The notes under the pieces were generated by a model. The model did no database searches, was not told the DNA's origin, and was given only the letters and a program-made list of their open reading frames with translations. A stretch of 64,000 nt of DNA from a virus. Numbering within the stretch: position 1 is the stretch's first letter; every line of letters starts with the position of its first letter. Both the position numbers and the translations under genes were made by a program. Positions 3,254-57,709 of the stretch are shown in pieces. The stretch covers positions 1 to 64,000 of the IMG/VR virus record IMGVR_UViG_3300025732_000030, one strand, 5' to 3'.

Positions 3254-3256
3254 GAA

Positions 3257-3958: not shown

Positions 3959-3964
3959 TAAATA

Positions 3965-6768: not shown

Positions 6769-6927
6769 ATGTCAGTATGTTCAAATTGTAAAGCAAAATT
6801 ATCCTGCGGGTGTCAGAAGAGAAAAGCATCTAATGGACAACAAGTATGCTCCAATTGCTTAGCAAAATATGAAACACAATTAAAAGCCAATAAAGGAAAA
6901 GATAGCTTACAAAAATTTACTAAATAA
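6769..6927 (+). CDS. 52-aa Cys-rich zinc-finger/metallothionein-like peptide (not in ORF track)
   Basis: MSVCSNCKAKLSCGCQKRKASNGQQVCSNCLAKYETQLKANKGKDSLQKFTK*; TAATG overlap with the next gene. Confidence 0.75.
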   Translation: MSVCSNCKAKLSCGCQKRKASNGQQVCSNCLAKYETQLKANKGKDSLQKFTK

Positions 6928-32413: not shown

Positions 32414-35400
32414 ATGCCTGGTATTGAAGATTTTAATGAAAAGTTAACAAAATTAGCAAATGCTAGTTCAAGTAGAATGCTTGAAAATGAAATGCGTTTG
32501 TATAATCCCAATGATCAAATAACTCCATATGCATATAATGCTGGAAAAACAAGTGGCTCTCATTTTAAAAGATATTACGCATATGGTCCTGAAACATTTG
32601 AAAGAATAGGTTTTTCACCATTTCAAAATAATGAAAAAAATTTTAATGAAGGTACTGGAACATATGCTGAATTTAAAAGATCTATTGTGCATGGTTTTGC
32701 ACCATTATTTGCAAGAGGATTTGTATCTGGACCTAAGAGTTTGGGGAGAATGCTTAAAGGAGATTTTAGTGATGACCCAGAAGAAGCAGCAGCATATGCA
32801 GAAGCATCAGCAATTGCATCATCTACTAAAGGTGGTTTAACGGGATTTGGAAGTAATTTATTAGTAAACTTTGGTTATACTGCAGGAATTATAATGGAAG
32901 CAGTTGCTGAAGAAGCTTTAACATTAGGTTTAAGTAGTGAATATACTATCTTCAATGCAGGTAAAAATTTAGTAAGAGGTGTTAAATATGTTGGTCGTGC
33001 ACCAAAGGTTGGTAAAGGAATATTAGCAACAGAAAGTATACTACAAAGAACTAATCAATTACAGTCAACACTTAAAAAATTAGATAATATAACTGATGCA
33101 AGAAACTATTGGAAATCTCTGAAGGTGGATAGATCAATGGGTAATGTAGCTGCAAAGTCAAAAAGTACAGGGAAATCTGTTTTAAATTTTTTTAATCCTA
33201 TTAGCAATACTACAGATGCAATAATTGATGTTGCTAAATCTTCTAAGAATTTTCAGGGTCTAGAAAAAATTTCTAATGCTGCATTCAAAACTGTTGGGGG
33301 TTTATATAGAGATATTAGAAATGTTAATATGGCTTTATCAGAGGGTAGGCTAGAAGCAGGCTTTGTTAGAAAAGATACTTTTGATCAACTATTTGATGAG
33401 TATAGAGAAACACATAATGGAGAAGATCCACCTGATGATCTTCAAGATGAAATGCGTCAAAAAGCAAAAGAAGCTTCAGAAGGAGCTTTGCTTGCAAATA
33501 CTCTTTTAATTTTTGCTACAAACAAAATTGTTTTTGACAATGTTATGTCTCCTAAAAGAGGGATAGCAAGAGTATTCAGCAAAAAAATAGCTGATGTTAA
33601 AAAGAACATGGCCGGGAGAACAGTAAGAGAGTTTACTAAAAAGACACTTAAAACTGGTAAAGAAGTTCTTACACCTAAATTATCTGTAATTAAAAAAGGT
33701 TGGAAAGGTTGGAAAGGTACTGCTCAAGCTATAAAAAAACAAGGATTTCAAAAAACTGTATTAAAAACAATTGGCTATGCTAAGGCAAATATAATGGAGG
33801 GTATCCAAGAATCAATGCAAGATGTAATTGCTAAAACCTCAAAAGATTATTATACAGAATCTTTTTATTCTGAACCTGTTGCTTCTTATTATTATACTGA
33901 AGGTTTTTTAAATAAAAAAAACAAAGAAGACAAATCATTTTGGGATCACTTAGGAGAAGGATTTCAAGCACAAGTTTATGAAACTGATGCAAGAGGAGAA
34001 TTTGTTTTAAAGAAAGGAGAAAAACAATGGAGTGGAAAAGGTTTTGAAACATTTTTATCTGGTTTTGCAATGGGGACAATGGCAGGCCCAGTCAACAAAG
34101 CATTACCATTTATTCAATCTAAGATTGCTAAATATAAAAATAAAGCTCAATATGATGCTCTTAAAGCTAAGCTTGCATCATATAATGAATCAATGGCAAA
34201 ACAAGTTAATGATACTTTTAAAAATGATCCATTAAATATGCTTAATGCAAGATTATATAATCTTGGTGTGCAATCTAAACTTGCTGATCAAATTGCTGAT
34301 CCGGATACAAAAGCAAAACAAGATGCAATTGAAGAAGCTACTGTAAAGCAAATATCTCAAATGATTGAACTGGGTGCAACAGACATTTGGTTGGATCATT
34401 TAGAAAATATTAAAAATCTTACACAAGAAGAGTATGCAGAATATCAGGGGATTACAATGGAACAAGCTGATGGACATACAGAAAAGATAGATCATATCAT
34501 AAATAAAACACAAGACATTCTTAAAAATTATGATAAGGTAAATGAAATGTATCCCAATCCTGTAGACTTAAATGAATACAAGAAGGGTTCAGTAGAATAT
34601 CAAAAGGCCGCTTTATTTTCTAAAGCATGGGATGAGGCTGTAAGAAATGTAATTTTTTATAATGATAGTTATAAAAATACTCTTGATAGAATGCAAAAAG
34701 TTTATCGGGATATGGCATCAAACAAATTAATTGGTAAAGTAGATCCTTTAAGAGTACAAGCATTATTTAATGAAGATGATTTAACTGGAGAAATTGGAAT
34801 GCTTAAAACAGAAATTGAAGCTTTAGAAGGTTCTGAAGATCCAAATTCTAAAAAACAGTTAGTTGCAAGAAAAGATTCTTTAAAAGCTTTAGAAGAATTT
34901 AAAGAAAACTATAATAGTTTTATGGATCACTTCTATAAAACTGCTAGATCTCAAGAAGATGATGAAGTACAAGCTATAGAGTCTCAACTAAGTGACATTG
35001 AAACCCAATTAAAAGGTAAACCAAGAAGAGCTGAAAGAGTAAGATTAGAAAGAGAACAAAAAAGATTAAATACAAGACTATCTCAGTTTGAAAAAAATGA
35101 GGAGAGAACACTTGAGAGACAAGAACTAAAAGATAAAAAAAATAGAATCATTGATCTCAATAATCAGATTGATGAATTAACAAATACAAAAAATAATTTT
35201 TCAGTTCCAGCATATTATGATCAATTTACCACAGCCAGTCAATATCAAGAAAGAGAATCAGAAAGAATAGATAGAAAAATTGCTGATTTAGAGCAAGAAC
35301 GTGATTCAATAAATACTGAAGTAGAGTCCACTATGGATTTTACTAATGAAAAAATGTTAGCTAATCTTGAAGGTTCATTTAAAAAGTATTTGAAAACTCT

Positions 35401-38400
35401 TGCTAATCAAAGCAATGAAACTTTATTAGATAGTAATATGGATCAAGCCTTTGAAATGCTTGTTGATTATTACAGATTAGGTAAAGAAGCTCAAGGTACA
35501 GCAGAGGCCATTAATATTTTGAATGATCCTGCTGGTTTTGTGGAACATGTTGAAAATAATTTTGCTTGGATGTCAGATCTATGGAACAATAGAGAAGACA
35601 TGATACTAAAAAATATAACAGAGCAAACAAAAAGAATTCAGTATAACAACTTGTTAAATATGTTAGCTGCTGAGGGCATCTATGTTGATTTAGAAGAGTT
35701 TGCAAACTGGAAAATGAATGGTGAACTACCTACTGAATTTTATGACTCAGTTAATAAAAGAGTTGTTCCAAAAGGAAGTATATTATATAATCAAGTTGCT
35801 CAAAAATTTATTGAGTTAGACTTTTTAAATAATATGGTGGAAAGTAAAAAATCACCAGAACAAAAACTTGCGGATAGTTTAAAAATGTTAAATTTATTAG
35901 AGCAAGAAGAACTTAATGAGCTTCAAAAATATAATGTAAAAAAAGAAATTGGTAAAATTGATGATAAAGAATTTACAATAGATACTGTTAAAAGTAAATT
36001 AGGGATTGATCAATACCTAGATGCTACATATACAACAGAAGATGGAAAAACTGTAAATATTACTTTTTATAAAGATTCTGATGGAAACATTAAATATACT
36101 GATGCTCAAGGATCAATAGTTGGTAATATATCTATTAAGCTTAGAGATGGAAAAATATTTGCTTATAGAGAAGAGCCAGATCCAGTTGAAGTTGAAGCCA
36201 TCAAAAAAAGATATGATCAACTTAGAGCAGAGGCTGCTGAAGGATCTATTGCAAGTACATCAAATGTAATCTTAGAAGGTGGTGTAGTTTCATTAGATGA
36301 TCTTAATGCAGATACTCCAATTGCTAATATGCCTGAAGAATTAAGAGAACAGCTTAAAGCAGCATTTGAAGATTATAGAGATGACCCAAAAAATGAATAT
36401 TTATTTCCAGAAAACCTTACTGAAGAAGAAATAGAATACAGATTTGTTAAATTTATAAAAAGTGAGTCAGAAGCATTAGAGCTTATTGAAAATTATATTA
36501 AAGAACAAAGGCTTAAAACTTCAACTTCTGAGGGAGAAGTTTCTGCTCCAATGATTACTTTATCAACTGGTAAAAAAATATCTGCAGAGAATGCTACTGA
36601 TAAACAAATTCAATCTGTATTACAACGCTATAATATGGAAATTAATGCTATAGAGAATAATAAAAATAAATCTATAGATGATGAAGTAAGGCTAAAAGAA
36701 TTAAAAGAAAAGTATTCACTTTTAGAATCTTATATTAAAAGTAGAATTAATAAAGCTCTTACTCCGGAAATGCAGAATGCTCTTGAGTTAATTAAACAAT
36801 TACAGAAAGAACAAGAAAGAATAGAAGCATTACCAACAGGATATAAGATTGGTATGAAGATTCTTAGAAGGGTAACAAATGTTATTCAAAAATTCTTGGG
36901 TAAAAAATATGAATATAAATCTAAACCAGAAATTGAAGCTGCCTATAATTTAACAATAGGGGAAGGTCAATCAGTTAAAGACTTTATTGATATTTTAAAA
37001 GCAAGTAAGCTTCCAGGATTCAATGAGAAATCTTATGAAGCTATAGAGGCATTCATGAATGAATATAGTGATACTGATTTAAAAGGTATTGATCCTGCAT
37101 TATTAGCTGCAAGACGTGGAGATAGAAAAGCTCAGGAAGAATTTGAAAAGTATGGATTAGAGTGGGAACAAACAACCACTTATAGATTTGTAGGGCAATC
37201 AGAAGTAGATGTGCTATTATCTGGAAAAAATGTAGATAGCAAAAGGGGAATGGCAGATGCTGGTATTGATGTAACCACATCCCCAAAAGTTACAAGTGCT
37301 GCTACCAATGAATATAGAGTTACGTTCAAAGAGAGTTTTGATGTGAATAATGGTTTAGGTAAAGTAAGGGAAAAAAATAAAGAATTAGGAGATCATCATC
37401 TTGAAAAAGGTAGGGGTTATTCTTTAAATGATGTTGTTAAAATAGAAAGACTAGATGAAAATGGAAATGTTATAGAAACTATATACAGCCCTAATATAGA
37501 TAGTTTAAAAGAAGCAACAATTAACTTTATCACAGAACAAGCAACATATCAATGGGGTAGAGATAGAGGTAATGTAATAGATAGACTAACTAAAAAATAT
37601 TTTAGTGGTGAAAAAGTTCAACCAGATCTTAATGAAATTTCACAAGAAGCATTTGATAGTTTGTTTGGAAGAAATGGTATTTATAAAACTATAAAAGATT
37701 ATATAGATACAAATGATTTAATTGTTGTAGCAAATGGTCTTATAGTATATGATGAGGAAGCAAATGTAGCTGGGGAAATAGATTTACTTCTTGTTGATAG
37801 AAAAGGTAATTTTCAGATTATAGATATTAAAACTGGTGAAACAGCCAAGTGGAATGGGTATAATAATCCTAAAAGTGATAACTATGAAAAACAAATTGAG
37901 AATACTTATCAGCAAATGGTATATGCTAGACTATTGAAAAATATGTTTGGTATAGATGCTAAGATAAATATACTACCTATTGAAACTACTGTAGATCCTA
38001 CAACAAGTAAAATACTTACTGCAAAAAGACCAGGCTCTCCACTGCTATTGAAGGCAGATAAAATTTTATTTCCATTAGAGCCAACCCAAGAAATGTATGA
38101 TAAACTTGATGCTGAAATACCTGTAACAGAACCTAAATTTAAAGGAACAGTTCCATCTAGTAATGTTGAAGATATACTTGATGATCCTAATCTTAATGAT
38201 GTTGAAAATTCAGACTATGAAAATGAAAATCCAGAGGAAGAAGATGATGATGATCAATTAAACAGTGTTAAAGAATATAATAAATTAAAATCTAAAATTG
38301 AAAAAGCAGACTATGATCAGTTGCAACTTCTTAAAGTAGATCTTGCAATGAACATTGTAAAATTTTCCCCTGCACAGTTTACAGAATTAAATAAATTAAT

Positions 38401-38842
38401 TGAAGAAAAAGAAGCAGCTTTAAAAGTACAGGATGAAACTGAAGATGGAGAAGTAATTATTTACAATATAGGTGATCAAGTTTACTCAGAAAATGATATC
38501 TTTACAAATACGGGTAGGAAATTTTTGAGTGCTAATCAAACAGCAGTTATATCAGAGATTTCTGGAGATAAAATTACTATTAAACCAGAAGGTAAAAGAA
38601 CTAAAATGGAAATGAGTATAGAAGAATTTAAAAAGAAATTTAAACCTGCAAGCACATTGTTTAGTGGAGAAGAAACAGATGGTCCTGTAGTTGACGAGAG
38701 TGAAGGAGTTACTCAAGAATCTACAGATACTGTTTCAGATTTATTGGATGGTCAAGATGCTGCTTCTAGACAAAAAGCTTTAGAAGATCAAGCTATAGTG
38801 GAAAATACAAGAGATAATTTATTAGATGACTTAGATTGTTAA
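32414..38842 (+). CDS. Giant cargo protein with coiled coils and a C-terminal PD-(D/E)xK nuclease
   Basis: 2142 aa; AGEIDLLLVDRKGNFQIIDIKT (37769-37834) and YQQMVY; single Cys as the last residue. Confidence 0.7.
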   Translation: MPGIEDFNEKLTKLANASSSRMLENEMRLYNPNDQITPYAYNAGKTSGSHFKRYYAYGPETFERIGFSPFQNNEKNFNEGTGTYAEFKRSIVHGFAPLFARGFVSGPKSLGRMLKGDFSDDPEEAAAYAEASAIASSTKGGLTGFGSNLLVNFGYTAGIIMEAVAEEALTLGLSSEYTIFNAGKNLVRGVKYVGRAPKVGKGILATESILQRTNQLQSTLKKLDNITDARNYWKSLKVDRSMGNVAAKSKSTGKSVLNFFNPISNTTDAIIDVAKSSKNFQGLEKISNAAFKTVGGLYRDIRNVNMALSEGRLEAGFVRKDTFDQLFDEYRETHNGEDPPDDLQDEMRQKAKEASEGALLANTLLIFATNKIVFDNVMSPKRGIARVFSKKIADVKKNMAGRTVREFTKKTLKTGKEVLTPKLSVIKKGWKGWKGTAQAIKKQGFQKTVLKTIGYAKANIMEGIQESMQDVIAKTSKDYYTESFYSEPVASYYYTEGFLNKKNKEDKSFWDHLGEGFQAQVYETDARGEFVLKKGEKQWSGKGFETFLSGFAMGTMAGPVNKALPFIQSKIAKYKNKAQYDALKAKLASYNESMAKQVNDTFKNDPLNMLNARLYNLGVQSKLADQIADPDTKAKQDAIEEATVKQISQMIELGATDIWLDHLENIKNLTQEEYAEYQGITMEQADGHTEKIDHIINKTQDILKNYDKVNEMYPNPVDLNEYKKGSVEYQKAALFSKAWDEAVRNVIFYNDSYKNTLDRMQKVYRDMASNKLIGKVDPLRVQALFNEDDLTGEIGMLKTEIEALEGSEDPNSKKQLVARKDSLKALEEFKENYNSFMDHFYKTARSQEDDEVQAIESQLSDIETQLKGKPRRAERVRLEREQKRLNTRLSQFEKNEERTLERQELKDKKNRIIDLNNQIDELTNTKNNFSVPAYYDQFTTASQYQERESERIDRKIADLEQERDSINTEVESTMDFTNEKMLANLEGSFKKYLKTLANQSNETLLDSNMDQAFEMLVDYYRLGKEAQGTAEAINILNDPAGFVEHVENNFAWMSDLWNNREDMILKNITEQTKRIQYNNLLNMLAAEGIYVDLEEFANWKMNGELPTEFYDSVNKRVVPKGSILYNQVAQKFIELDFLNNMVESKKSPEQKLADSLKMLNLLEQEELNELQKYNVKKEIGKIDDKEFTIDTVKSKLGIDQYLDATYTTEDGKTVNITFYKDSDGNIKYTDAQGSIVGNISIKLRDGKIFAYREEPDPVEVEAIKKRYDQLRAEAAEGSIASTSNVILEGGVVSLDDLNADTPIANMPEELREQLKAAFEDYRDDPKNEYLFPENLTEEEIEYRFVKFIKSESEALELIENYIKEQRLKTSTSEGEVSAPMITLSTGKKISAENATDKQIQSVLQRYNMEINAIENNKNKSIDDEVRLKELKEKYSLLESYIKSRINKALTPEMQNALELIKQLQKEQERIEALPTGYKIGMKILRRVTNVIQKFLGKKYEYKSKPEIEAAYNLTIGEGQSVKDFIDILKASKLPGFNEKSYEAIEAFMNEYSDTDLKGIDPALLAARRGDRKAQEEFEKYGLEWEQTTTYRFVGQSEVDVLLSGKNVDSKRGMADAGIDVTTSPKVTSAATNEYRVTFKESFDVNNGLGKVREKNKELGDHHLEKGRGYSLNDVVKIERLDENGNVIETIYSPNIDSLKEATINFITEQATYQWGRDRGNVIDRLTKKYFSGEKVQPDLNEISQEAFDSLFGRNGIYKTIKDYIDTNDLIVVANGLIVYDEEANVAGEIDLLLVDRKGNFQIIDIKTGETAKWNGYNNPKSDNYEKQIENTYQQMVYARLLKNMFGIDAKINILPIETTVDPTTSKILTAKRPGSPLLLKADKILFPLEPTQEMYDKLDAEIPVTEPKFKGTVPSSNVEDILDDPNLNDVENSDYENENPEEEDDDDQLNSVKEYNKLKSKIEKADYDQLQLLKVDLAMNIVKFSPAQFTELNKLIEEKEAALKVQDETEDGEVIIYNIGDQVYSENDIFTNTGRKFLSANQTAVISEISGDKITIKPEGKRTKMEMSIEEFKKKFKPASTLFSGEETDGPVVDESEGVTQESTDTVSDLLDGQDAASRQKALEDQAIVENTRDNLLDDLDC

Positions 38843-38846
38843 GAAG

Positions 38847-41800
38847 ATGAAAATAGTTTGTGCATTATCACCAAAACAAGTAGAGAACTTATATAAAGAT
38901 ATATATAAAAACATGTTGAATTCATTAGAAGCTGATAAAGCTTTTAATGCTAATGACTACATGAAAACTTTATTTACACAAATTGCTGAGAAAAAAGATG
39001 TTCCAACAGCAATGAAATTTTTACAGCAAGTGCCTAGCATTATGAGAGCTGTTGGTGTAAAATCACAGTTTGATAATTTAGATATTTCTTTAGACGCCCT
39101 TAAGCCATTGGTTACAGATTTTAAAAATGAAAAAGATGGTTTCAAGAATGTACTTAACTATTTCAAGCCAGAGATGTCTGACAAAGACAAACTGGAATTA
39201 CTTGTAGCAAATCAATTTATCTCAAGCTTACCTACTGAAATAGAAGATCCTAAAGAGATAAAAGATCCTTTTAGATTTAAACCATTTAGTTGGTTAAGTA
39301 CTACATTTCAACAATTAATACAACTTAACCCACTTAATAAATTAAAGTTATTAAGTGAAAAACCAGATGCTAATAAAAATAGGATTTACAACACTATAGA
39401 CAAAATACAAGCTGCTATTAGTGCTGAGCAAGCTTTAGTAACTGATGGTACATTAACGGTAGCTGGTAAAGTATTAAAACTAAAACCTGTTAGACTATTA
39501 GATCTTTATGATACAAACCAAGCAGATATTGATAACACTACTGCTCAAGATGTAATAAGAACTAAATCTATTAAAAATAGACCTGCGGGAGTTGAAACAC
39601 AAGATACAATTGCTTTAGTTTTATCAGATGAAGATGGTAATTATTACCACTTTACAGAGGACGGAAATTTTTCTACTGAAGAAGAAGGAGGAAAAATAGT
39701 TTATCAGTTTATGAGAAATGTAAACAAAGATAATACTACTGGAGAATATGTTGCAGTAAATCAATATGGGTATGATGATCAGATTCAAACACCAGAAATG
39801 ATTGCAGAAAAATTAGAAATTACTGTAGAAAAAGCTAAAGAACTTCAACAAGAAGAATTAAAAAACTTATACGAAATAAAACAAGCTGTTGTAAACAATC
39901 AGCAAAATCCTCTTTTAAATGTGGTTGAATTAAGTGCGGGTGTTCCAGAAAGTTTAGCACAAAAGAAAATATCATTAAAAAATTTAAGATCTCTTCCATT
40001 TGTAAATAATGCAACATTTAAAACAATAACACCAGTAATTGAAAAAGGATCAGATGTATCTGCAGTTATTACATTAAATGGTACTATATATCCGGTGGAT
40101 AAACCAGATTTATCTGAAGTTTTAATACAAAAAATAACATCAGTTCTTACAAATCCTAAACTATCTAATAAACAAAAGTATGACTTTGTAAATCAATTTC
40201 TTTCTGATAAAGCTTCAATGAAAGCAAGAAGACATACGTTACTTTATAATCCTGGAACAGATGCCCTCACTTTTCAATATACTGAAAAAACAAATGCTGA
40301 TGGAACTGGTGGAACATATACATTACTCAATGACCAATTAAATAATAAATATGATTTAGTATATGATGTTTTAAGATATGCAAAAGGTGATAGTAGAAAG
40401 GGTAAACCTTTTCCTGCTAAAATGACTTATAATATTGATGTCCTATCTAGAAATGGATATCAAGATTATAATATAGAAACAGGAGAAATTAGTGATGAGT
40501 ATACACCTTATATTCCATTATTAGAAACACTAGATGCCGCAGATATTAAAATATCTGAAAGCACAGATCCTGGATTTTATAATACATATATTAGATTTAG
40601 TATTCCTTCAGATATTTCTATAGATGCAACTGAAGAGCCAAAAGTGAGATCACAATATGTAGGTAAATTTATTTACTCAACTCCGGGATCTGGAAAAACT
40701 ACTTTAGCAAATACAGATGAGAACATTATAGATACTGATGAGTTAATTGTAGAAGAAATGAATAAAAGGCATCCTGACTTTAAACAGGAAGCTAATGAAC
40801 CCATACAAGAGTTTATTTTAAGATATGTTATAAAATATGACCATAAAGCTGAAATAAACAAAATAGTTTTAAATCAAGTTAAAGAACTAACTGCTAGTGG
40901 TAAAACTGTTCTTACAGGTACAATGGCATTCATTAAAGATGTTGATGTTGTATTTAGAATGAATCCTACAAGCAGTAGAGCAATTGAAAGATTTGGTTCA
41001 GTTGAGAAAGCAAAAGATTTTGCTAAAAAAGAAAAAGATGAAGCTAATAAAGCAAAGAAAAAATCAATTGAAACAAAAGGAATAGAACAAAGTATAATGA
41101 CATCTTTTGTTTCTGAACCTGTTACGCAAACACCAAAAGAAGAAAGAGATAATATCATAGAACCTGAAAACACACCAAAACCAGAAGAAGGAGGTCTTGG
41201 TAGTTTGCTTGATGATGAAATGTACAGATCTGGTAAAAATTTAGATTTAGAAAATATTACTTCTGAAGATATAAAAAATGCTGAGACATGGTGGAATAAC
41301 TCACCACTGTCTAAGTTTATTGATTTCAAAACAATGGTTAACATTGTTAACTCTGATGTTTATGCAAAGTTTATTGCATATGGAGCTGTGTTAAATAATA
41401 AATATGGTGAGATTCAAATTGGTCAAAGAACTAGTATAGTAGATGTATATCATGAAGCATGGCACGGATTTACTCAGTTATTCTTAACTCCAACTGAAAG
41501 AAAAGCTTTATATGATGAAGTTGCAAAACAAGAAGGAAGCTTTACACTATTAAATGAAACCACTGTTAAATTTAGTGACGCAACATATGGACAGCTTGAA
41601 GAATATCTTGCAGAAGAATTTAGAACTTATGCAAAAGAACAAGGTGTTAAAGCTAATTCACCTAAAAGAAATAGTATATTTAGAAAAATTCTAAACTTCT
41701 TAAAAAATCTATTTAAATCTAAAAATACTAAAGATAAACTCTTTAATGAGTTATACTTAGCTGGAAAAAATAAAAAGAATAGTCAAAAGTTCTTAAATAA

Positions 41801-50800: not shown

Positions 50801-51470
50801 AAAACCTATTTATAATTTCTATGAAAATGTAGTGGCTAATGTTCTTAAAAAACAAGGTTATACACCTACACAAGTTACAGATGAGTATGGTAATACTTGG
50901 AATGAGGTAATAATTAACCAAGCTAGAGATTTACAAAATGTATTGTTGCAAAAAAATGAAGCAGATAAAATTATAGGTCAAGCTAATATTAAAGCTATGA
51001 CAGTATTAATTGATGCTGTAAATCAAAGACAAGATACATTACCACATGAGTATGCTCACCATTATATTGCTTGGTTTAGAAATACTCCTATTGTTCAAGA
51101 AGGCATTAAAAGATTTGGTAGTGAAGAAGCATTAGTACAAGCAATTGGAGAACAAGTTGTAAAACAAAAAGGAAATGCCTATAATTGGTGGAAAAAGTTT
51201 ACTAACTTTATCTTAAATCTATTGTCTAATAAACAAGTGTTACAAGTATTAACTGATAGTTTCTTAAATAGAACAAACTTAAATGAAGTTACCTATAATG
51301 AAGAAATGGAAAGTCAGGAAATAGAAACTGAAACAACACAAGAAAGACAAGAAAAAATTGATACTTTAAATGAACTAGAATTTAAAAATTGGTTCACAAA
51401 TGAAGCAACTAAAAATCCAGATTTAGATATCTTAGATGCTCTAGATTATTATATGAAATGTAAAAGATAA
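38847..51470 (+). CDS. Virion RNA polymerase polyprotein (phi14:2 gp66-like two-barrel RNAP) with accessory domains
   Basis: GADFDVDKL catalytic motif (45918-45932), preceded by RIPVQG and ADGQGWI; also P-loop STPGSGKTT, HEAWH, a NADAR-like domain and HEYAH. Confidence 0.9.
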   Translation: MKIVCALSPKQVENLYKDIYKNMLNSLEADKAFNANDYMKTLFTQIAEKKDVPTAMKFLQQVPSIMRAVGVKSQFDNLDISLDALKPLVTDFKNEKDGFKNVLNYFKPEMSDKDKLELLVANQFISSLPTEIEDPKEIKDPFRFKPFSWLSTTFQQLIQLNPLNKLKLLSEKPDANKNRIYNTIDKIQAAISAEQALVTDGTLTVAGKVLKLKPVRLLDLYDTNQADIDNTTAQDVIRTKSIKNRPAGVETQDTIALVLSDEDGNYYHFTEDGNFSTEEEGGKIVYQFMRNVNKDNTTGEYVAVNQYGYDDQIQTPEMIAEKLEITVEKAKELQQEELKNLYEIKQAVVNNQQNPLLNVVELSAGVPESLAQKKISLKNLRSLPFVNNATFKTITPVIEKGSDVSAVITLNGTIYPVDKPDLSEVLIQKITSVLTNPKLSNKQKYDFVNQFLSDKASMKARRHTLLYNPGTDALTFQYTEKTNADGTGGTYTLLNDQLNNKYDLVYDVLRYAKGDSRKGKPFPAKMTYNIDVLSRNGYQDYNIETGEISDEYTPYIPLLETLDAADIKISESTDPGFYNTYIRFSIPSDISIDATEEPKVRSQYVGKFIYSTPGSGKTTLANTDENIIDTDELIVEEMNKRHPDFKQEANEPIQEFILRYVIKYDHKAEINKIVLNQVKELTASGKTVLTGTMAFIKDVDVVFRMNPTSSRAIERFGSVEKAKDFAKKEKDEANKAKKKSIETKGIEQSIMTSFVSEPVTQTPKEERDNIIEPENTPKPEEGGLGSLLDDEMYRSGKNLDLENITSEDIKNAETWWNNSPLSKFIDFKTMVNIVNSDVYAKFIAYGAVLNNKYGEIQIGQRTSIVDVYHEAWHGFTQLFLTPTERKALYDEVAKQEGSFTLLNETTVKFSDATYGQLEEYLAEEFRTYAKEQGVKANSPKRNSIFRKILNFLKNLFKSKNTKDKLFNELYLAGKNKKNSQKFLNKYSPLVNTFSFKELNRGIENVVEPTIDALDKQDSNLVSKSIDSFFSLRADKNSEETGTKEATIRIFTNEKTKEKVYAEAKVDFQNKLDTAKEELEKIQDDPTKALEIEKLQNKIRIFETALKNWGDKKSGVIAYHNENSDYKIINKKFKEIKDEEEDDTTTQSQTANSKTVENSSQGETLGIKDDTQTKSLLDLASSETIVLLSSLHKIENGKTVLNELGYPELADFATTWNNTIRALNGEKNPSKMLENIRTSAQTIYPEFKQLLRKLPGYTIENGKIVINEKNRFEVKTLSAFWQDFQKTRVTYLQTTIFDNNIAEVTKASIETMSLMRKFQAKFKSDLENKFIGRSAENVAFLKVAEVVAEFGKDGKLDSDRAYEFARAIGLYLDDLSIIKNELNLNQKAKQMYGLIYIYRAMYDIDNAMKNPKTTQKTVTEINEFLLDPIGKLTSGFSAGTIAEKEVRQKNAIDRILGLQAKYGFDSANFAVLNAEKNLVFEHIDDHTISYITYALNKMDNLSEAWTPGSEFEYMSYLNPLINSFTTRLGIINTLFDKNDTEDGVYNWAKRSGKSLQLFINSGTQVEAIDDGTNTTSLDARGKFLQELHSMLKGGMIEFMRHASKSSSFGARIDGEGGILGGVGKGTDTRLWVDIDKFAVGNAYEYVVKNHMIPYIAGELERINKFKANKELFKTYKGYNRVLADGTMAGENFTAFDNVLTKDTKAKILEAVTDPNIRFEDYIKTNPKLYKEILEEITKYFTDQTKDLQNYYNEAKYLSPDLLDKLSVFNLDQEKVEEVLMSAYAVNSWVQNFETATLFYGDIVQYNHEKEEMHKRNSGATSGGLKIRTDQSIRRYLTELNGKLSYAQAEGLETLAYTGTYNSAIIQDIKRESVYSPIIERELRKDYTERLKGKVPADKLSEEVEMRVAQDLKPYAKMEEADGQGWITIDAYRNLKMASDQWSDLQEELFKKIINKQPVKYSDIIEFFPVYKVQNFGHLANTALPVMAMHKFALAPLIPPMIKNSDLESLHKQMIKNNIQYVTFPTGSKVGSVTSQVNEKGEAVADKIYDDKDQKSLKTNIKFTPNKVYLEYLKDVTKVPVSYKNKTVFATQLRKLILSNLYRNGELTVKNQVLIKDYEDAVDAYGEFLKMELLNEIGYTFEDGKYIGNFKNFLELVQRELGRKNIPEHHIEFVNMNPDNSLKTDLSFHLRADEIEKIIVSLIEKRLVRQKIKGEALVQVSSAMTNGIWDNQIQFDKADIEQVRKFMGTNNLPFYNYNKDRTSAMKVAIALQGDFVNLLNLDYKGEKIGTRERLNQAIKDDEWLNANDGANRKAITMIAVRIPVQGLNSMEYMEVYEFLDEAAGPIIIPPSEIVAKSGADFDVDKLTTFMPSLDKSGKFVESAISNERLQNLLNQNKDTEEGKQMNARLLSTQKAALENKLITSISNILSLPENYASLVRPNATYLLKDAIADKIADKVTDYNRFDNYHGEETRLNEKGEKAISPTRVLEPLYNLHKHEANMIGKKVLGIVAIYNALHPVLNSLGASMPKTYRYKKSKERKSRIFLPVNKTKDGRISLSETTTVDGDLISELYSQLMNGSVDVEKDAWIFFIQGNEELIGLMAMLLKSGVPREHAIKFLSQPLVREYAKEQRLLKSSYSDLITDNSGIPKTQLTVNYYGEPIEIKIPDKEIAAARVLSRFGVDKPMRFVKGNADQASLDAFIKKGNILNKEGVFDLKLLDAILEDPNNPARKDQQIATLLHVMELEKQFSGYQELMRLSNPDTSISKTLQQVLNRNVLLDEIENDSRVESKIVNALRKESILSTFFDNQIVQDLVEPVFPLRNSKDISNIIIGLIKNNSFQITKRFGDTEKFISEIKNNMVNSVFQNYMMGYVQSEKDLLNIPSDLLAKYFTKDVFFQNTGYSFAEDIFDIINQHPELKDKYSLLSQLSIPEVKDGQKILTLNNSRLLSKGNIAEQYYQNIVALADPNVSKVDDPVQNKYISDMFRVLPLMAIYQNGVGYSRFGFNEILPFEDYVTIMNNAAVDFNNQSFENKQLYMDRVFSISMNPKNRIFKNFVSAAFASTIPTFEKKNRFTVIPQSGVKDAKAVVKSSISTQFIGFGEGIVGKDGKRSSTQIYREQVGNLANTGKYSSTDVIFVSVPGLRGDAAITKREQDKTIKEAIKAIEAEATILVDNKAYTFDSKNTYNTGEKRLFQNLEAKGYNYSEITIDGVKIGTWSKSRTTQAPISTGVEISSNAKGLAAALTNPTELAKSKGNLTQSYPIEFNGKTYKDVEAAYQALKDKSESITKPTKENSKNYKLMVDLIKAKLQQHSRLVSEITKQGGSTWVLSSTHQPTNANTVWETGGKNWFIEALNDAYLSTQPTTAPTVITEIKPEDITFKSNRLETFERQGDLESVKGYGLIIKGQPNVDLFTFKDDSEWVIIDNKSKLLIPIRGGISTKRDIAKLLSNDLTFHISKERNRKLLEGIGFNFTQEQKPGDQLDLFNQRTINPNQKFDKVLAKKIQDKLEKLYPEIKLNISNTPVWEQGDNVLNQEQYNNQVNYRIKTVDILLTPKADQVFAKGIKNKWTLDKILTELQIPKNQKGLIERVIETMPYFEGIPFNAQLAYAIASTYNYTIEINTSKDKIEDAFGNVWVDKYPNKKIGDYITIDNKQWKITGTRFEDDSWGDSGLEQRESFIVGSEGENTQYYSNLTVPGGTNYTEQEVTTPGVVPNIKGHAQFATDKGIGWFRSDERTNSLKQFNEFEIGDTWYAQGSINMYGREYYGKIVGNNEGVEISKEEFEKAKQEFISSNPSYTDNTKTRRILEVQSDLFQKGRDKYFLYEKEGKQTVLGTQIIDSSENQFLQLLNKDNNWVTFFVKSIIQDSAKKGYEKVLFPSGNTASKVEGHTTLEEFKKQKEDRIKELEKDENIYHLALILDKSDSGILDSFPTKEEALIAINRNNKEIQELDSSSELTYELREKNLNLNEINQLKQELERIEGPEGFGALKPIYNFYENVVANVLKKQGYTPTQVTDEYGNTWNEVIINQARDLQNVLLQKNEADKIIGQANIKAMTVLIDAVNQRQDTLPHEYAHHYIAWFRNTPIVQEGIKRFGSEEALVQAIGEQVVKQKGNAYNWWKKFTNFILNLLSNKQVLQVLTDSFLNRTNLNEVTYNEEMESQEIETETTQERQEKIDTLNELEFKNWFTNEATKNPDLDILDALDYYMKCKR

Positions 51471-51475
51471 ATATT

Positions 51476-54400
51476 ATGTCATTCTGTTTAAACTTTGGTG
51501 ATCCTAATGTACAAAAAATGGTAAAAGATTTTGGAGAGGTTAAAGTCTCTAATCTTATCCAGGAATTTTTTAATAGTGAAACACCTATATATGATGATTT
51601 CATTAAAAATAAAAATGTTAAAGAGGCATTAGGTTTAGTACCTATATCTAAAGTGAAACAAGAAATTGGTAAAAGCTTTCCCAAAGAAATTAGTGGAAGC
51701 CAAATGATTAGTTTAAAGAGTGCCGTTTCTAGAAAAAACAACTATAATTTTAGTAATAAAATTTCAGTAGTATATTCTTTATATAACTTAGAGCAAATAG
51801 GGCAAGCAGATTTAAATACTTGGGGTCTTAGAAAAGTTAAAGGTAAATTAGATATTGATGGCAAAATAGATAGAGCAAAATCTAGAATTGTAGATGCTGG
51901 TCAATCAAATAAACCTGTATCAGAATTAGAAAATCTAATTAAAACAGGAGCATATATAAAACCAGAATTCAGAGAGAAAACTCCTGAAGAATTATTATAT
52001 GAACAAGAAGCTAGAAAGATACAAGAGGAGGATGCTAAAAGAGCAGGTGTAGATTATAGCGATGACTACTTATTTGGAAGAAATTCTGAAGGACAATTGG
52101 GTGTAGATCCAAATATTACAGAAGCAGAGTTCAGAAGACAAGCAGACATTGTAACTAAAATGGCAGCTGTAGAAGAAGCTACTGCAGATAATTTTGATGT
52201 TAAAAAAGAAAAAGCTATTGAGGTTGCTACAAAACTTGCAGATAAATTATCTGAAGCTATGAATGTAGAATGGGAGTTAGTAACTCCTGAAGCTGCTGAA
52301 ATATTATTAAAAAATACTCCAACAGAATATGCCGGAGAACCAGCATTTTTCTTTGGTAATAAAGTATACTTTGTAGAAGGTAATCTATCACTTGATAATG
52401 TACTACATGAATTTGCACATCCTTTAATAAAGGGAATTGAGCAAGAGAATCCTGAGCTATTTGATAAGTTATATACTGAATTAAGTATGACACCAGAGGG
52501 TCTAGATGTTATAGCATATATAGAAAGGGTATATCCAAGACTTCAAAAAAGCACAAAAGCATTTATGCGGGAAGCATTAGTTACTTCTATTGAAAGAAAA
52601 GGTACAGCTCCATCTTCTAAATTTAAAAAATTCTTAGACAAACTAATGTTTGCTATCAAGAAAATTATTAGAAAAGTGTTTAGCCCGCAAGCAGCCGCAA
52701 AGATTAATTTAAATAAATTAAGTCAAAGTACCACTTTAGATCAATTAGCAAATATGCTTGCTAATGAGGAGTTTGAGATAGAAACAGTTGATATTTTAGA
52801 TACTGATTCTGCAGAGTTTAAAAAACTAGAAAATAATATTTCTAGAAGAATTGCAGAACTTAAAGAATTACCGGTTGAAAAATTGCAAGAAGAGATTAAT
52901 AGAATCTATGACAATAACATGCGGCAGCTTAATAGTTTAAAGCAAGTGCCATTTAAAGTAAAAGATTTATTAGTTAAAAGTGGTGGTACAAAAATTTTAA
53001 ATTATATTCGGGAAGAGCTTTCAAAATATCAAACAGTTAATGTAAGAGCAGAAGATATTGATCCAGAAAATGTTATCAGAGCTGTAGAAGATATAGAAAA
53101 AGAAACAAGACTTAGAGCCCTTGCTTTAATAAACTCATTAAATGAAATAAAAATATTTACTGAAAGTATTGAAAAAATTCTTGATGATTTATCAAAAGTA
53201 GAATCACAAACAAATGAAAATATATCAAGAGTTGTTTATTATAAAACTTCATTACAAAATCAAAAAGATTTAATAGATAACTTAAAAGATATAGGATTAG
53301 ATAAAGAAACTTTATTTTTTAGTACTCTTAACTCAATTCAAAATTCAATTGAAAAAGCTAATAAAAAAATAGAAGAAATTGAATTTAAGTTTATATCTGA
53401 TTTCTTTACAGATGAGACTGAATTAATGAAAGGCAGTGTTGAAAAAAATTTAAAAGAAAGGGTTGGTATAATCTTAAAGGCAGAGGGATATTCTGATGTA
53501 GAAATAGATAAATTTATAAATAATGTAATTGATACAAAAGATAGGGAAACATATACATTAAAAGATCTTGGTTTAACTGGAGTAAGTTCAAGAAGAGCAA
53601 AACTGGTTGTTAAGGCTGTAAATGAGTATATGTTTAAAAGATTGGGTAAACAGCAAATTGAAGAATATTTAAAAGGGCAGAGAGGAGATATTTCATTTTT
53701 TACAGGATTTATAACTCCATATGCAAATATGGATGATCCAATTTCTGGTTCCTTTACAAGATTTATAAAAACTAAAATATTTGAAGCTCAACAATCAGCA
53801 CAAGATCAAGCAGATGAAATAACATATAAATTACTACCATTATTAAATGCAGTAGGTTATCAACCACATAAAGTAGATCAACTTGGTGATATGCTATTAT
53901 TTTTAGATAAAGTTGGTTATGTAGATAATAATGGAGATTTTCAAGAAAAAGAAGTTTGGACATTCAAAAATAAGTTTAAAAATTATAAATATGATTTAGC
54001 AAAACTTCAAAATGATTTTGCAGTTGCAAGACATAACAATGATAAACAAGGTATGAAAGATGCTTATCAAGCAATTCAAGACTTTGAAGAAAAATATATG
54101 CATAGAAAATATACAAAAGCTTTTTATGATATACAAAAAATTTGGAATACCGGATCTACAGTAACTGATCCTTTTACAGGAGAAGAAATAACTGTATCTC
54201 CTAGTGTAGCATTTGATGCATATGTAGAAAGACAGAATCAACTTTCTAAAATGAATACATTAAAGAATGTTAATTTCTTAGACTTAGAGGACTTATATGA
54301 TTTTAATGACTCAGAGGAACAGGCCAGATTAGAATATAATAGGTTATTTGATATATATTCCTTAGACGGTAAACCAAAACAAGGTGAAGAACTTCAAAGA

Positions 54401-57400
54401 GTGTTATTAAGAAAAAAACACCGGGAGCTATCTAGAAACATGTATGATTATGATGTGGATAGTGATAGAGTACAAAAAGATCTTGACAATTTTCATAATA
54501 GATTATTGGCCAAAGGAATAGACCCAGAAGCAGAGCCTAAAGAAGGAGAAACTAAAAATGAATATCAAAAACAGATTGATAAGTTCATACGGGCTAATTT
54601 TAAAACAGCTTATACATCTAAGTTTTATTCTGAAAGAAAAAGAATACTAAATGAGATTAGACAAATTACAGAAAAAGTTGCTAACAAAAAATCTCAGGTA
54701 GCTTTAGATTTAGCTGAGTTATATAAAACTAGATATAATTTATCAGTATCTACATCAGATGCAAATGGACAACCAAATGGTTTAAATCTTTCTCCCGAAC
54801 AAATTAATCTTTTAAAGAAAATAGAAGATGAAATAGTAATATTAGAAGAACAATTTAACAGAAAAACAGGATTAACAAAGGATCAAACAGCTAGATATGA
54901 TTCTTATATTGCAAAGGCAGCATCTGGAACTAAATTAACTGAAGAAGAAAAAAAAGATTATCTAGAAATACTTTCTGTTAAAAATGAAATGGGATTAAAT
55001 TCAACGGAACTAGCGGCACTTAAAGCTAGATTTGCTGAACTAAGAGAACTTGAAAGTAAAATACCTACAGATTATTATTTAGAAGCATTTAATTATGCAA
55101 TAAGGAATTTAGAACTTCCAGAAATTGATATGGATAATGCAGATAAGTGGATTAATTCAGATGACTTAACTAAAGCATTAGAAAATCCAGAATTTGCAAA
55201 ATGGTTTGGTAGAAATCATTACCAAAAAGAAGTATTTGATTTGGATTTAAATCAGAAAGTTGTTAAAAATTTTAGAACAGCTGCTTGGAGTATGAAAGTT
55301 CCAAATAATTCTGATCATTTCTTTTCAACATCTATGATTGATCCATTAACAAAAGAAGAAATACAAATTCCAGGAAGACCAACAGGAAAATATACTAAAA
55401 GTAAAATAAAGAATGAGTTTCTAACCATGCCAAAAGGAGAAAATTGGGATAATTATGTAGGAACTATTATAGATAACAGAGGGAACTTTTTACCAAAAGA
55501 ATACATAGTTGGTAATTCAGATTCAGCATTTGATAAAAAATATCAAAATGAAGAATATGAAGAAATAAAAAAGAATGGTGGCCCAGAGTTTCAGCTATTA
55601 AATGCAATAACTGAATCTATGTTACAAATTCAAAAAAATAAACCTGTTTCAAGTAGGTTATATTTAGAAATGCCAAGATTTAGAAAAAGAGGCAATTTAG
55701 AATATCTAATGACTGGGGAAACTAAAGAAAACATAGTAGAAAAAATTGGTGGATTTAAAGGTCTATGGAAAACATGGTTTGGTAGAGATATAGATGATGC
55801 AGAGTTTGGATTTAACCATGATCTTAATTATAATTTAGTAACTACAGATTTAGAAGGAAGGCCAGTTAATAGAGTTAAAATAAGGGGTTTATATAATTTA
55901 GAACAAAAACGTGTTTCTAAAGATGTATTGAGAGGTATGTATGACTATCTTTTGTCATTAGAAGAACAAAAAGTACTACTGGAAAATGAACCAATTGCTA
56001 AAGCTTTAGAAAGTGTTCTTGATAAAAATGGTGTAAAAGATCTAAATAGAGTTGATAGAGAAGAATATCGTAGAACTGGTAAAAAAGAATTCATTAAAAA
56101 AGAAGGAAATAGAAGACGTGATGTAATTAACCATATGGTTGAAAAAATCTTTTATGGTAAAATTGCTGGAGACTTTTCTGATGAACATCCAACAATAACT
56201 AAAATTGTTCAAGGATTATTTAGAAGATCATCAAGAGCATTCATTGCATTTGACCCACAGTCAGCTATTAAAAACCGTTGGGGGATGCTTTATCAAAATG
56301 CCATATATGCATCAGGTGGTAAAAATGTTACACCACTGTCATTAGCTAAGGGATATGCAAAAGCTAAGCAATCTGCAATGTACTGGGTTTTTAAAGATAT
56401 TTATGAACAAGGAATTAAATCAGCTGATATACAGTTAATAGAAAGAATGGACCCAACAGCAATGTTTGGTAAAAACTTTGGTAAATCATCTTCAAGATCA
56501 AAATTAAAAGACTTAGCAGATTTAACTTATGCTTATGACTTTAGAAGAACTATGGAACTTGAAGCAGCCATGGAAATGTTCTGGGGTATAATGTATAATA
56601 AATATATTCCTCAAGCAGGTTCATCAGAAGATATTACTTATGCAGATGCATGGGAAACAGATGATAAGGGGATTTTAAAATTAAAAGATGGTATTGATCC
56701 AGCATATGATTATAAAAAAGTGGATCATGAATATAAATTTGGAGATACTTTTGAAAGTATTGGTAAAAGATATAATATAACTGCTGAACAAGTTAAACAA
56801 AGAAGTGGTATAACAGATATGTCAAAACTTGAACCTGGAGATAAAATTACTGTAGGTAATATGGAAGAATTTATAAATATGAAATTCTTACAACAAGGTA
56901 TACAAAAAAAGACAACAGGTTTAATGGATGTATTTGATACACCACAGGCTGAAAAATATTTAGTTTATCGAGCATTCACTTTTTATAAAAGATTTGCTAC
57001 AGGAATATTTCTTGACAAATATCAAATAGATACAACTAAAGGTAATAGAGGTGGTTATGTTTATAACTGGGATACTAATGCTTTAGATAAAGGTTATTAT
57101 ACCAATACTTTACAAAATGTTTGGAGACTTATAAGATCTGTTGGTAAAGATTTGGCAATAATGACTGAAGATGAAAAAATAGCTACAAGAAAAATGATTA
57201 TAGAAAATATTGGTTATTTTTTAATAGCAATGATAATTGGTTCATGGTATTTTGGTTTTGACCCGGATGATGAGGACAAGTGGGACAAATTAAAAGCAAG
57301 AGGTACAACAACACAAGGACAACTTGAAAATCATCTCCTTTATCTTTTACTGATGACTAAAATGGAAAATGAAGCTTTTTCTCCTTTAGCTATTTATACA

Positions 57401-57676
57401 CAAGGAACAAAATATTTTAAAACAACAACAATTGCACTAGATAATACAGTAGTGTTATATGGTAAAATTGCACAAGATCTTAAGAATATGGCAGAAGGTG
57501 ATGATAATGAAGCTAGATATAGTCAAGATGTGGGGTCTTATTCTTGGCAAAAGAAAGGGTCATTAAAGCTTTGGAACCATCTTTTTTCAACTTATGGTAT
57601 TAAAGGTAAAAATGAAATAGAAGAAGGTGGTATTTGGTCTATTAAAAAATACCAAGCATTTGAAAATGCTGATTAA
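51476..57676 (+). CDS. Giant cargo protein with zincin, LysM and a C-terminal hydrophobic helix
   Basis: HEFAH (52406-52420); LysM-like HEYKFGDTFESIGKRYNITAEQVKQRSGI...LEPGDKITV (56726-56857); IGYFLIAMIIGSWYFGF. Confidence 0.7.
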   Translation: MSFCLNFGDPNVQKMVKDFGEVKVSNLIQEFFNSETPIYDDFIKNKNVKEALGLVPISKVKQEIGKSFPKEISGSQMISLKSAVSRKNNYNFSNKISVVYSLYNLEQIGQADLNTWGLRKVKGKLDIDGKIDRAKSRIVDAGQSNKPVSELENLIKTGAYIKPEFREKTPEELLYEQEARKIQEEDAKRAGVDYSDDYLFGRNSEGQLGVDPNITEAEFRRQADIVTKMAAVEEATADNFDVKKEKAIEVATKLADKLSEAMNVEWELVTPEAAEILLKNTPTEYAGEPAFFFGNKVYFVEGNLSLDNVLHEFAHPLIKGIEQENPELFDKLYTELSMTPEGLDVIAYIERVYPRLQKSTKAFMREALVTSIERKGTAPSSKFKKFLDKLMFAIKKIIRKVFSPQAAAKINLNKLSQSTTLDQLANMLANEEFEIETVDILDTDSAEFKKLENNISRRIAELKELPVEKLQEEINRIYDNNMRQLNSLKQVPFKVKDLLVKSGGTKILNYIREELSKYQTVNVRAEDIDPENVIRAVEDIEKETRLRALALINSLNEIKIFTESIEKILDDLSKVESQTNENISRVVYYKTSLQNQKDLIDNLKDIGLDKETLFFSTLNSIQNSIEKANKKIEEIEFKFISDFFTDETELMKGSVEKNLKERVGIILKAEGYSDVEIDKFINNVIDTKDRETYTLKDLGLTGVSSRRAKLVVKAVNEYMFKRLGKQQIEEYLKGQRGDISFFTGFITPYANMDDPISGSFTRFIKTKIFEAQQSAQDQADEITYKLLPLLNAVGYQPHKVDQLGDMLLFLDKVGYVDNNGDFQEKEVWTFKNKFKNYKYDLAKLQNDFAVARHNNDKQGMKDAYQAIQDFEEKYMHRKYTKAFYDIQKIWNTGSTVTDPFTGEEITVSPSVAFDAYVERQNQLSKMNTLKNVNFLDLEDLYDFNDSEEQARLEYNRLFDIYSLDGKPKQGEELQRVLLRKKHRELSRNMYDYDVDSDRVQKDLDNFHNRLLAKGIDPEAEPKEGETKNEYQKQIDKFIRANFKTAYTSKFYSERKRILNEIRQITEKVANKKSQVALDLAELYKTRYNLSVSTSDANGQPNGLNLSPEQINLLKKIEDEIVILEEQFNRKTGLTKDQTARYDSYIAKAASGTKLTEEEKKDYLEILSVKNEMGLNSTELAALKARFAELRELESKIPTDYYLEAFNYAIRNLELPEIDMDNADKWINSDDLTKALENPEFAKWFGRNHYQKEVFDLDLNQKVVKNFRTAAWSMKVPNNSDHFFSTSMIDPLTKEEIQIPGRPTGKYTKSKIKNEFLTMPKGENWDNYVGTIIDNRGNFLPKEYIVGNSDSAFDKKYQNEEYEEIKKNGGPEFQLLNAITESMLQIQKNKPVSSRLYLEMPRFRKRGNLEYLMTGETKENIVEKIGGFKGLWKTWFGRDIDDAEFGFNHDLNYNLVTTDLEGRPVNRVKIRGLYNLEQKRVSKDVLRGMYDYLLSLEEQKVLLENEPIAKALESVLDKNGVKDLNRVDREEYRRTGKKEFIKKEGNRRRDVINHMVEKIFYGKIAGDFSDEHPTITKIVQGLFRRSSRAFIAFDPQSAIKNRWGMLYQNAIYASGGKNVTPLSLAKGYAKAKQSAMYWVFKDIYEQGIKSADIQLIERMDPTAMFGKNFGKSSSRSKLKDLADLTYAYDFRRTMELEAAMEMFWGIMYNKYIPQAGSSEDITYADAWETDDKGILKLKDGIDPAYDYKKVDHEYKFGDTFESIGKRYNITAEQVKQRSGITDMSKLEPGDKITVGNMEEFINMKFLQQGIQKKTTGLMDVFDTPQAEKYLVYRAFTFYKRFATGIFLDKYQIDTTKGNRGGYVYNWDTNALDKGYYTNTLQNVWRLIRSVGKDLAIMTEDEKIATRKMIIENIGYFLIAMIIGSWYFGFDPDDEDKWDKLKARGTTTQGQLENHLLYLLLMTKMENEAFSPLAIYTQGTKYFKTTTIALDNTVVLYGKIAQDLKNMAEGDDNEARYSQDVGSYSWQKKGSLKLWNHLFSTYGIKGKNEIEEGGIWSIKKYQAFENAD

Positions 57677-57680
57677 AAAT

Positions 57681-57709
57681 AAAAGGGAAGATTATTTCTT
57701 CCCTTTTTT
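57681..57709. terminator. Bidirectional terminator at the convergence of late and replication modules
   Basis: AAAAGGGAAGA-ttatt-TCTTCCCTTTT with an A-run before and a T-run after. Confidence 0.85.

Follow-up and report, generated by a model that had tools for sequence, protein, structure and literature searches.

Three consecutive giant genes of a crAss-like phage appear to encode cargo proteins that are almost free of cysteine (Cys) and keep a single Cys at each terminus that faces a neighbouring cargo protein. The window analysed here consists of the first 64 kb (64,000 nucleotides, nt) of the 78.5-kb IMG/VR virus record IMGVR_UViG_3300025732_000030, which is rated 66% complete. The three proteins, denoted A, B and C, are encoded one after the other on the + strand, at positions 32414-38842 (2142 amino acids, aa), 38847-51470 (4207 aa) and 51476-57676 (2066 aa), respectively; B is the giant that contains the virion RNA polymerase (RNAP). 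By analogy with a solved cyanophage structure, we consider it likely, with a probability of about 0.7, that the paired terminal Cys form disulfides between the proteins and tie A, B and C into one chain.

Translation of all open reading frames (ORFs) places only four Cys in the 8415 residues of A, B and C. The sole Cys of A is its last residue (Cys2142 in ...DLDC*; TGT codon at 38837-38839). B has Cys only at residue 5 (MKIVC; TGT at 38859-38861) and at residue 4205, the third from last (position −3, YMKCKR*; TGT at 51459-51461), and the sole Cys of C is residue 4 (MSFC; TGT at 51485-51487). A preliminary description of this DNA had listed the same four residues, and both our translation and the raw sequence of the junctions reproduce their positions and coordinates exactly; no additional internal Cys was found. 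Its statement that the outer ends of the chain are free of Cys likewise holds for the N-terminus of A and the C-terminus of C, as well as for the two smaller proteins encoded upstream on the + strand. These are a 504-aa protein (28539-30053), which is not Cys-tipped, and a 774-aa protein (30079-32403) located directly before A, whose junction with A lacks Cys on both sides. The tail genes are Cys-rich, as had been noted: the protein encoded at 6927-8822 contains 52 Cys in 631 aa, and the + strand ORFs before 18 kb average 2.6%.

At the background frequency of the other ORFs in the window (1.68%), approximately 141 Cys would be expected in the three cargo proteins, compared with an actual frequency of 0.048% (Poisson P(≤4) = 9e-55). 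The probability that four uniformly placed Cys would fall one into each inner terminal 5-mer is 3e-12. TGY codons make up 3.1% in the +2 frame of the cargo DNA, and base composition therefore does not explain the depletion.

Two scans of IMG/VR, seeded with the C-terminal 499 aa of B and with an alignment of RNAP modules reaching 23% identity, yielded 160 loci besides two close relatives of the window. The layout is almost everywhere the same: two small Cys-free proteins are followed by two to five giant proteins, each with a Cys in its last few residues, and the next giant has a Cys at residue 3-8. In 163 IMG/VR loci and the window, 208 giant-giant junctions (190 unique) carry the Cys pair and none carries the C-terminal Cys alone, while in seven others the N-terminal Cys alone falls within the nine-residue limit. 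In four of these seven the upstream protein has its Cys further from the end (−10, −16, −19 or −23), in two an additional ORF separates the cargo pieces, and one is an artefact. A first tally with a stricter definition of the chain gave 77 paired junctions, 25 that were Cys-free on both sides and no discordant one; the Cys-free junctions connect cargo with the small proteins upstream or with neighbours unrelated to it. Among other same-strand gene pairs from the loci of that tally, taken as controls, 12 have Cys on both sides, 85 on one side (34 C-terminal, 51 N-terminal) and 314 on neither. Internal Cys account for 0.018% of the 889,094 residues in the chains of the relatives. As far as sequence comparison can tell, terminal Cys very probably do pair between one cargo protein and the next.

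The two loci with an extra ORF are the only real breaks of the pairing rule. In both (L006:12693-14852 and L078:5203-6987) an ORF of 719 or 594 aa with CxxC pairs lies between cargo pieces, the piece before it being without a terminal Cys and the piece after it having one; the ORF of L006 has a PG_binding_1 match. In two further loci, ferritin-like genes occupy the gaps between Cys-tipped cargo genes (L019:5751-6230 and L028:8946-9434; Pfam Ferritin, E = 1e-7 and 5e-20). An iron-storage gene inside a crassvirus cargo block was unexpected.

Conservation singles out the same residues. Among 19 A-like proteins (27% mean column identity), no column of the last 250 residues other than the terminal Cys is invariant. 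In 23 B-like tails the Cys alone is conserved at 90% or more over the last 200 residues, and in 23 C-like proteins it is the sole invariant column of the first 500 residues; in B-like heads, Cys5 is among seven invariant columns in the first 600 residues. The position of the Cys floats from −1 to −9 at the C-terminal side of the junctions and from 3 to 8 at the N-terminal side, the neighbouring residues vary, and both TGT and TGC are used. No His, Asp, Glu or second Cys is conserved at a fixed distance next to either Cys.

The Cys pair also follows the breaks between genes. Projected onto the window, the paired junctions of the relatives map to B 1, to B ~900-1000, ~3250-3500, ~3750-3800 and ~4094, to the B|C junction and to C ~50-190, and window B has no Cys at any of these internal break sites. 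The site at B ~3750-3800 offers the cleanest comparison of split and unsplit forms: on its downstream side, loci L080 and L054 share 88-91% identity with L064 and L073. L080 and L054 contain a GIY-YIG homing-endonuclease gene (Pfam) at the site, with a new tail before it (...IKCS or ...APCE) and a new head after it (MACKYIF or MACYEYK). The endonuclease gene is absent from the unsplit L064 and L073, which have a plain Cys-free linker at the same position. This break looks like gene fission by a mobile element that was 'healed' at the protein level. Conversely, proteins that are continuous through the B|C site, such as the 2450-aa one of L013 (9062-16414), have only their N-terminal Cys. They are without the ~145-aa tail and the ~240-aa head that flank the junction in the window, and the fully fused giants of L053 (4895 aa) and L072 (more than 5601 aa) are Cys-free. 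Splits thus carry the pair and fused forms are without it, a comparison that the preliminary description had proposed.

GIY-YIG genes lie in many junctions with gaps of 500-1200 nt, in L080 (10141-10926), L015, L052, L054, L058, L062, L066, L070, L077, L078 and L081. The order of the modules varies as well. It is permuted in eight relatives (L007, L019, L025, L040, L053, L069, L072 and L075), in which a module resembling residues 3480-4150 of B precedes the RNAP module, and not follows it as in the window; L149 and L161 have an A-like module after the RNAP protein.

The cultured phages phi14:2, crAss001 and crAss002 and a relative of p-crAssphage obey the same rule as the window. In phi14:2, g067 has a Cys at −1, g066 at 3 and −2, and g065 at 3, with no other Cys in 5398 residues. 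In crAss001, gp47 has one Cys (−3), gp50 has Cys at 5 and −9 plus one internal, and gp49 has one at 5. The RNAP modules of phi14:2 (g067-g066-g065; bioRxiv 10.1101/2020.03.07.982082) and crAss001 (gp47/gp50/gp49) are homologous to that of the window and share the DFDxD motif, and the cargo block likewise follows the tail ring genes and a pair of small Cys-free proteins. The cargo of phi14:2 and crAss001 was found in virions by mass spectrometry. The window cargo is only 22-28% identical to these proteins, and B is about twice the length of gp66 and has an extra conserved module (residues 3480-4150).

The gene for crAss001 gp47 lies on the opposite strand from gp50-gp49 and is not adjacent to gp50. 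The order of the partners would therefore be set by the proteins and not by gene adjacency, and the earlier proposal of a chain in gene order has to be qualified accordingly. Partner genes overlap in some cases and in others are separated by more than 1 kb containing entire genes.

Two database records depart from the rule by their annotated starts. The annotated crAss002 gp33 (L084:12800-12900) has an in-frame Met-Ser-Cys 32 codons past its start, and crAss002 gp32 ends in ...FVCS. The RNAP subunit of CrAssphage ZA, a relative of p-crAssphage (L167:9774-9850), has an in-frame Met-Ser-Cys 22 codons downstream, and the protein preceding it ends in ...FSCM. Both annotated starts are probably too far upstream; initiation at Met-Ser-Cys would put a Cys at residue 3 in each of the two proteins.

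For the A|B junction of the window, the last 250 residues of A were co-folded with the first 600 residues of B, each with a 19-row alignment. The pair scored 0.71 (0.71, 0.72 and 0.69 in the runs), compared with 0.00 for the best of three controls; the 0.71 mark is reached by 58 of 80 solved complexes and by two of 110 mismatched pairs, a rough calibration, since the alignments were our own. At least 49% of contacts are common to the runs, and the predicted local distance difference test (pLDDT) of the partners is at least 62. The confident interface joins residues 2093-2142 of A (the A tail; 38690-38839, + strand) with residues 2-24, 45-68 and 93-100 of B, and both Cys lie inside it. The B head (residues 2-100; 38850-39146, + strand) is modelled as helical, with helices at 9-125 and pLDDT of 84-92. 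No solved relative of either co-folded piece was found by sequence, and the result is therefore unlikely to reflect memory of a known complex; Foldseek searches of the PDB with AlphaFold models of the two heads (pLDDT 76.5 for B, 71.7 for C) returned nothing at E ≤ 0.001. According to this model the A tail docks on the B head; co-folding of adjoining termini was among the checks that the preliminary description had proposed. Head motifs differ between junctions in 56 of the 57 chains with two or more junctions, so that docking could set the order of the proteins and prevent a protein from linking to itself.

A covalent bond at just such termini has been observed in one podophage. The cryo-electron microscopy structure of cyanopodophage A4 contains a disulfide between gp27 Cys1715 and gp26 Cys5 (PNAS 2025, PMC12002296). 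In the A-4L genome these are the sole Cys of gp27 (1717 aa; position −3) and gp26 (1114 aa; residue 5), and the family members Pf-WMP4, Pf-WMP3 and TR020 keep both terminal Cys at ~25% identity, the gp26-like protein of TR020 having two further internal Cys. The sequence rule seen in the window hence marks, in A4, an observed bond. A4 (Anabaena phage A-4L, Saffermanviridae), a podophage, likewise possesses consecutive large internal or ejection proteins, those of its pre-ejectosome. The offsets of B Cys4205 (−3) and B Cys5 from their ends equal those of gp27 and gp26, although in the window the partners are different, A-2142 (−1) pairing with B-5 and B-4205 (−3) with C-4. In A4 the C-terminal helix of gp27 docks in gp26 and the Cys are bonded (PMC12002296), while in the window the docking is only predicted. 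The A4 link is single and belongs to a pentameric ring around the portal axis; the window would have two, with up to four in its relatives, and its chain, unlike the A4 link, includes an RNA polymerase. The A4 paper treats the bond as a stabilising detail and gives no rule tied to gene breaks (PMC12002296).

Ejected proteins of N4-like phages provide a second comparison. Their loss of Cys (N4 gp50, DEV gp71-gp73) has been explained by passage through the envelope (PMC11445570). As in N4 and DEV, a giant virion RNA polymerase and its companion ejection proteins are nearly free of Cys in the window. The N4-like proteins, however, have no Cys at all and their polymerase is one polypeptide, whereas the window encodes a split set with one Cys per inner terminus.

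The preprint on the phi14:2 polymerase contains no occurrence of 'cystein', 'Cys' or 'disulf' in its text and proposes that fused forms are cleaved into components (bioRxiv 10.1101/2020.03.07.982082). The Cys rule suggests instead that separate forms are re-joined. The terminal Cys go unmentioned in the crAss001 paper too, where the disulfides under discussion belong to tail and portal-vertex proteins (PMC10172136). In the freely accessible literature we found no prior description of the rule for Crassvirales, subscription-only papers being outside the search. The claim that such a linkage had not been described therefore stands for Crassvirales within the searched literature, where the terminal-Cys rule is new, but not in general, given the published A4 disulfide (PMC12002296). 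The rule extends this single structural observation to a multi-link chain tied to gene fission and fusion. Overall, the preliminary description is supported in part: its idea survived the computational tests that it had set (conserved, strictly paired terminal Cys, pairs at splits but not in fused forms, no internal Cys, and the modelled docking), and it needs qualifying as to novelty and gene order.

We propose the following scheme. A, B and C are purged of Cys, like the ejected proteins of other podophages, and retain one Cys no more than a few residues from each end that meets the neighbouring protein. The C-terminal tail of each protein would dock on the N-terminal head of the next, and the docked Cys pair would form an inter-protein disulfide in the assembled particle. 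The product would be a linear A-S-S-B-S-S-C thread of 8415 residues, in which different types of tail and head at the two junctions would give the order. Since the Cys lie 1-9 residues from the ends, the joint would be thin and unbranched, and the absence of other Cys would prevent wrong links. Reduction in the host cytoplasm would separate the proteins. As to its purpose, the link may serve to package the proteins together in fixed stoichiometry, to stabilise the core as in A4, or to order their exit.

More tentatively, and with odds that we place below even, the scheme may extend well beyond the window. Crassvirus cargo would then form a single thread of 5,000 to >8,000 residues irrespective of how many genes encode it, and breaks, including those made by homing-endonuclease fission, would be re-joined after translation by a tail, a head and a Cys pair. 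The thread would leave end to end and be released reductively. The device would have arisen independently in cyanopodophages and would possibly be general among podophages.

A different chemistry could produce the same chain. The paired Cys might bridge the proteins through a shared metal ion (e.g. Zn, Fe or Cu), with another trigger for release. Once tail and head have docked, the two neighbouring thiolates could hold such an ion, the 14 positions preceding the C-terminal Cys frequently include acidic residues, and the strict pairing fits this possibility equally well. However, neither side of the junction has a conserved third or fourth ligand (His, Asp, Glu or a second Cys), His makes up only 0.75% of the chain, and a Cys whose position floats (−1 to −9, 3 to 8) is easier to reconcile with a flexible disulfide than with a defined site. 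In A4, the only solved example, the link is a disulfide (PMC12002296). Given this precedent, the variable Cys position and the absence of additional conserved ligands, a disulfide is the likeliest link, and the metal bridge, although the chief alternative, is improbable.

It is equally difficult to maintain that the Cys are not in mutual contact and serve separate roles, such as attachment to the portal, the capsid or the DNA end, covalent modification, or redox sensing after ejection, any association of the proteins being non-covalent. The co-folding result would accommodate this view, as it concerns tail and head as a whole and not a Cys-Cys contact. Yet separate roles would predict neither the lack of C-terminal-only junctions among more than 200 nor the Cys-free outer ends, and they would not predict the joint loss of both Cys in fusions or their joint gain at a break made by an endonuclease; in the A4 structure, the same two positions are bonded (PMC12002296).

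That the pattern is a by-product of sequence at gene boundaries (start/stop context, coupling) or of ORF calling is hardly credible: 166 of the 219 unique junctions do have gaps of at most 20 nt or overlap, so that terminal codons overlap the initiation region of the neighbour, but 30 are more than 100 nt apart, many by a whole endonuclease or ferritin gene, the crAss001 gp47 and gp50 genes lie on opposite strands, Cys position, neighbouring residues and codon vary, the control gene pairs do not show the pattern, and junctions to the upstream Cys-free proteins are equally tight and have no Cys. The strand arrangement in crAss001, the long gaps and the use of both codons remove explanations by start/stop context.

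Three other candidates were rejected. A split intein, with an N-intein of ~100 aa that starts with Cys and a C-intein that ends in His-Asn before a Cys, has no room for its halves, the Cys being 1-3 residues from the C-terminus and 3-5 from the N-terminus, and no Hint or intein family was found in the Pfam scan at E ≤ 0.1. A lipoprotein signal does not match a Cys at residue 3-8 with no preceding hydrophobic segment, a lipobox Cys being expected at ~15-25. Relaxed selection at disordered ends predicts unpaired and outer-end Cys, neither of which is seen.

Several considerations weigh against a disulfide-linked chain. The host cytoplasm is reducing and many hosts are anaerobes, conditions that bear on when and where oxidation would occur. 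The co-folding lists both Cys in the interface and reports no Cys-Cys contact, and the docking model covers the A|B junction, one of the two in the window. The A4 proteins gave no phmmer match to the window proteins at E ≤ 1, and no A4 chain was among the matches listed by Foldseek for the B and C heads against the PDB; with no homology found in sequence or fold, the precedent is one of analogy and not of membership. Gut lineages tolerate internal Cys (six besides the terminal one in crAss002 gp33, seven in CrAssphage ZA), so that exclusivity is not universal. In crAss001, gp47, gp49 and gp50 were detected by mass spectrometry and were not resolved in the reconstruction (PMC10172136). Finally, the relatives share ancestry, and the number of independent events is far smaller than the 208 junctions, which overstate it. 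The window C head (MSFCLNFGDPNVQKMV...) aligns with a widespread head, MxxCPNxNxxxWKxLV, and the B|C junction is accordingly probably orthologous to the widespread 'CPN-head' junction and thus old. The module at B 3480-4150 lies on different sides of this junction in different lineages. Independent gains are much fewer than junctions.

The genes around the chain place it in a familiar setting. From ~4.5 kb to 57.7 kb the + strand of the window is, on the evidence of its gene content, the late-gene block of a crAss-like phage. CrAss_Ring_2 (11450-12115; Pfam, E = 1.6e-20) and CrAss_Ring_1 (12115-13155; E = 5.8e-11) both score above the cut-off, and the cargo genes follow downstream of these tail ring genes, as in late blocks of crassviruses. 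The relatives have the same two small Cys-free proteins ahead of the chain. Just past the stop codon of C, a hairpin followed by a T run (57682-57709, + strand), read from the sequence, ends the + strand block, and the genes beyond it in the ORF list are on the − strand.

We take A, B and C themselves to be the large packaged cargo proteins of this phage. Residues ~1750-2400 of B match phi14:2 gp66 (4e-14) and the crAss002 RNAP (2e-15) in tblastn searches, and B carries the DFDVD catalytic motif of the crAss-type virion RNA polymerase at residues 2358-2362 (45918-45932, + strand). The D-F-D-x-D columns are invariant in an alignment of B with phi14:2 gp66 and crAss002. The virion RNA polymerase label given earlier to the 4207-aa protein is thus borne out. 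The conserved module of B at residues ~3480-4150 (49284-51296, + strand) includes an HEYAH motif at 4067 (51045-51059), and a second HExxH motif of B, HEAWH, lies at 869 (41451-41465). In C, a zincin-like HEFAH motif occurs at residue 311 (52406-52420, + strand); its E312 is nearly invariant, and the region has no Pfam match and only weak matches to zinc-peptidase folds (E = 0.07). C also has a LysM peptidoglycan-binding domain at residues 1754-1793 (56735-56854, + strand; Pfam E = 2.6e-5, above the cut-off). This was the only such match in the Pfam search of the cargo proteins, which otherwise gave sub-threshold matches; among the latter, residues 1764-1844 of A (37703-37945) show weak similarity to PD-(D/E)XK/NERD nucleases (E = 0.0011, below the Pfam cut-off). 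No PHROG family was found for A, B, C or the 504-aa and 774-aa proteins.

Outside the cargo, Cys are distributed differently. Virions of crAss001 contain disulfides in tail and portal-vertex proteins (PMC10172136). Cys-rich proteins are encoded in the tail region of the window at 6927-8822 (8.2% Cys), 4487-6112 and 8842-10491; they fit the disulfide-stabilised tail of crAss001 and have no Pfam or PHROG family. The 1045-aa and 1340-aa proteins (18617-21754 and 21813-25835) have exactly two Cys each, 11 and 13 residues apart (141/152 and 415/428), and all ten Cys of the 881-aa protein (25842-28487) lie within residues 498-616. Local disulfides may account for the clustered Cys of these three otherwise Cys-poor proteins, or the Cys may make up a metal site.

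In the human gut, crassviruses are the most abundant phages, and the cargo protein that they store and deliver, ~5 MDa in all, includes the polymerase with which infection starts. If the proposed linkage is true, this cargo would be one functional unit, covalently tied head-to-tail. This would explain why one set of modules can be encoded by one, two, three or five genes, and the huge 'polyproteins' would need no cleavage. It would also offer a mechanism for a fixed stoichiometry and order of packaging or exit, and a redox switch for release. For annotation, the rule places the true start of a giant cargo gene at a Met two to seven codons before the conserved Cys, which would correct at least two database records, those of crAss002 gp33 and the CrAssphage ZA RNAP subunit.

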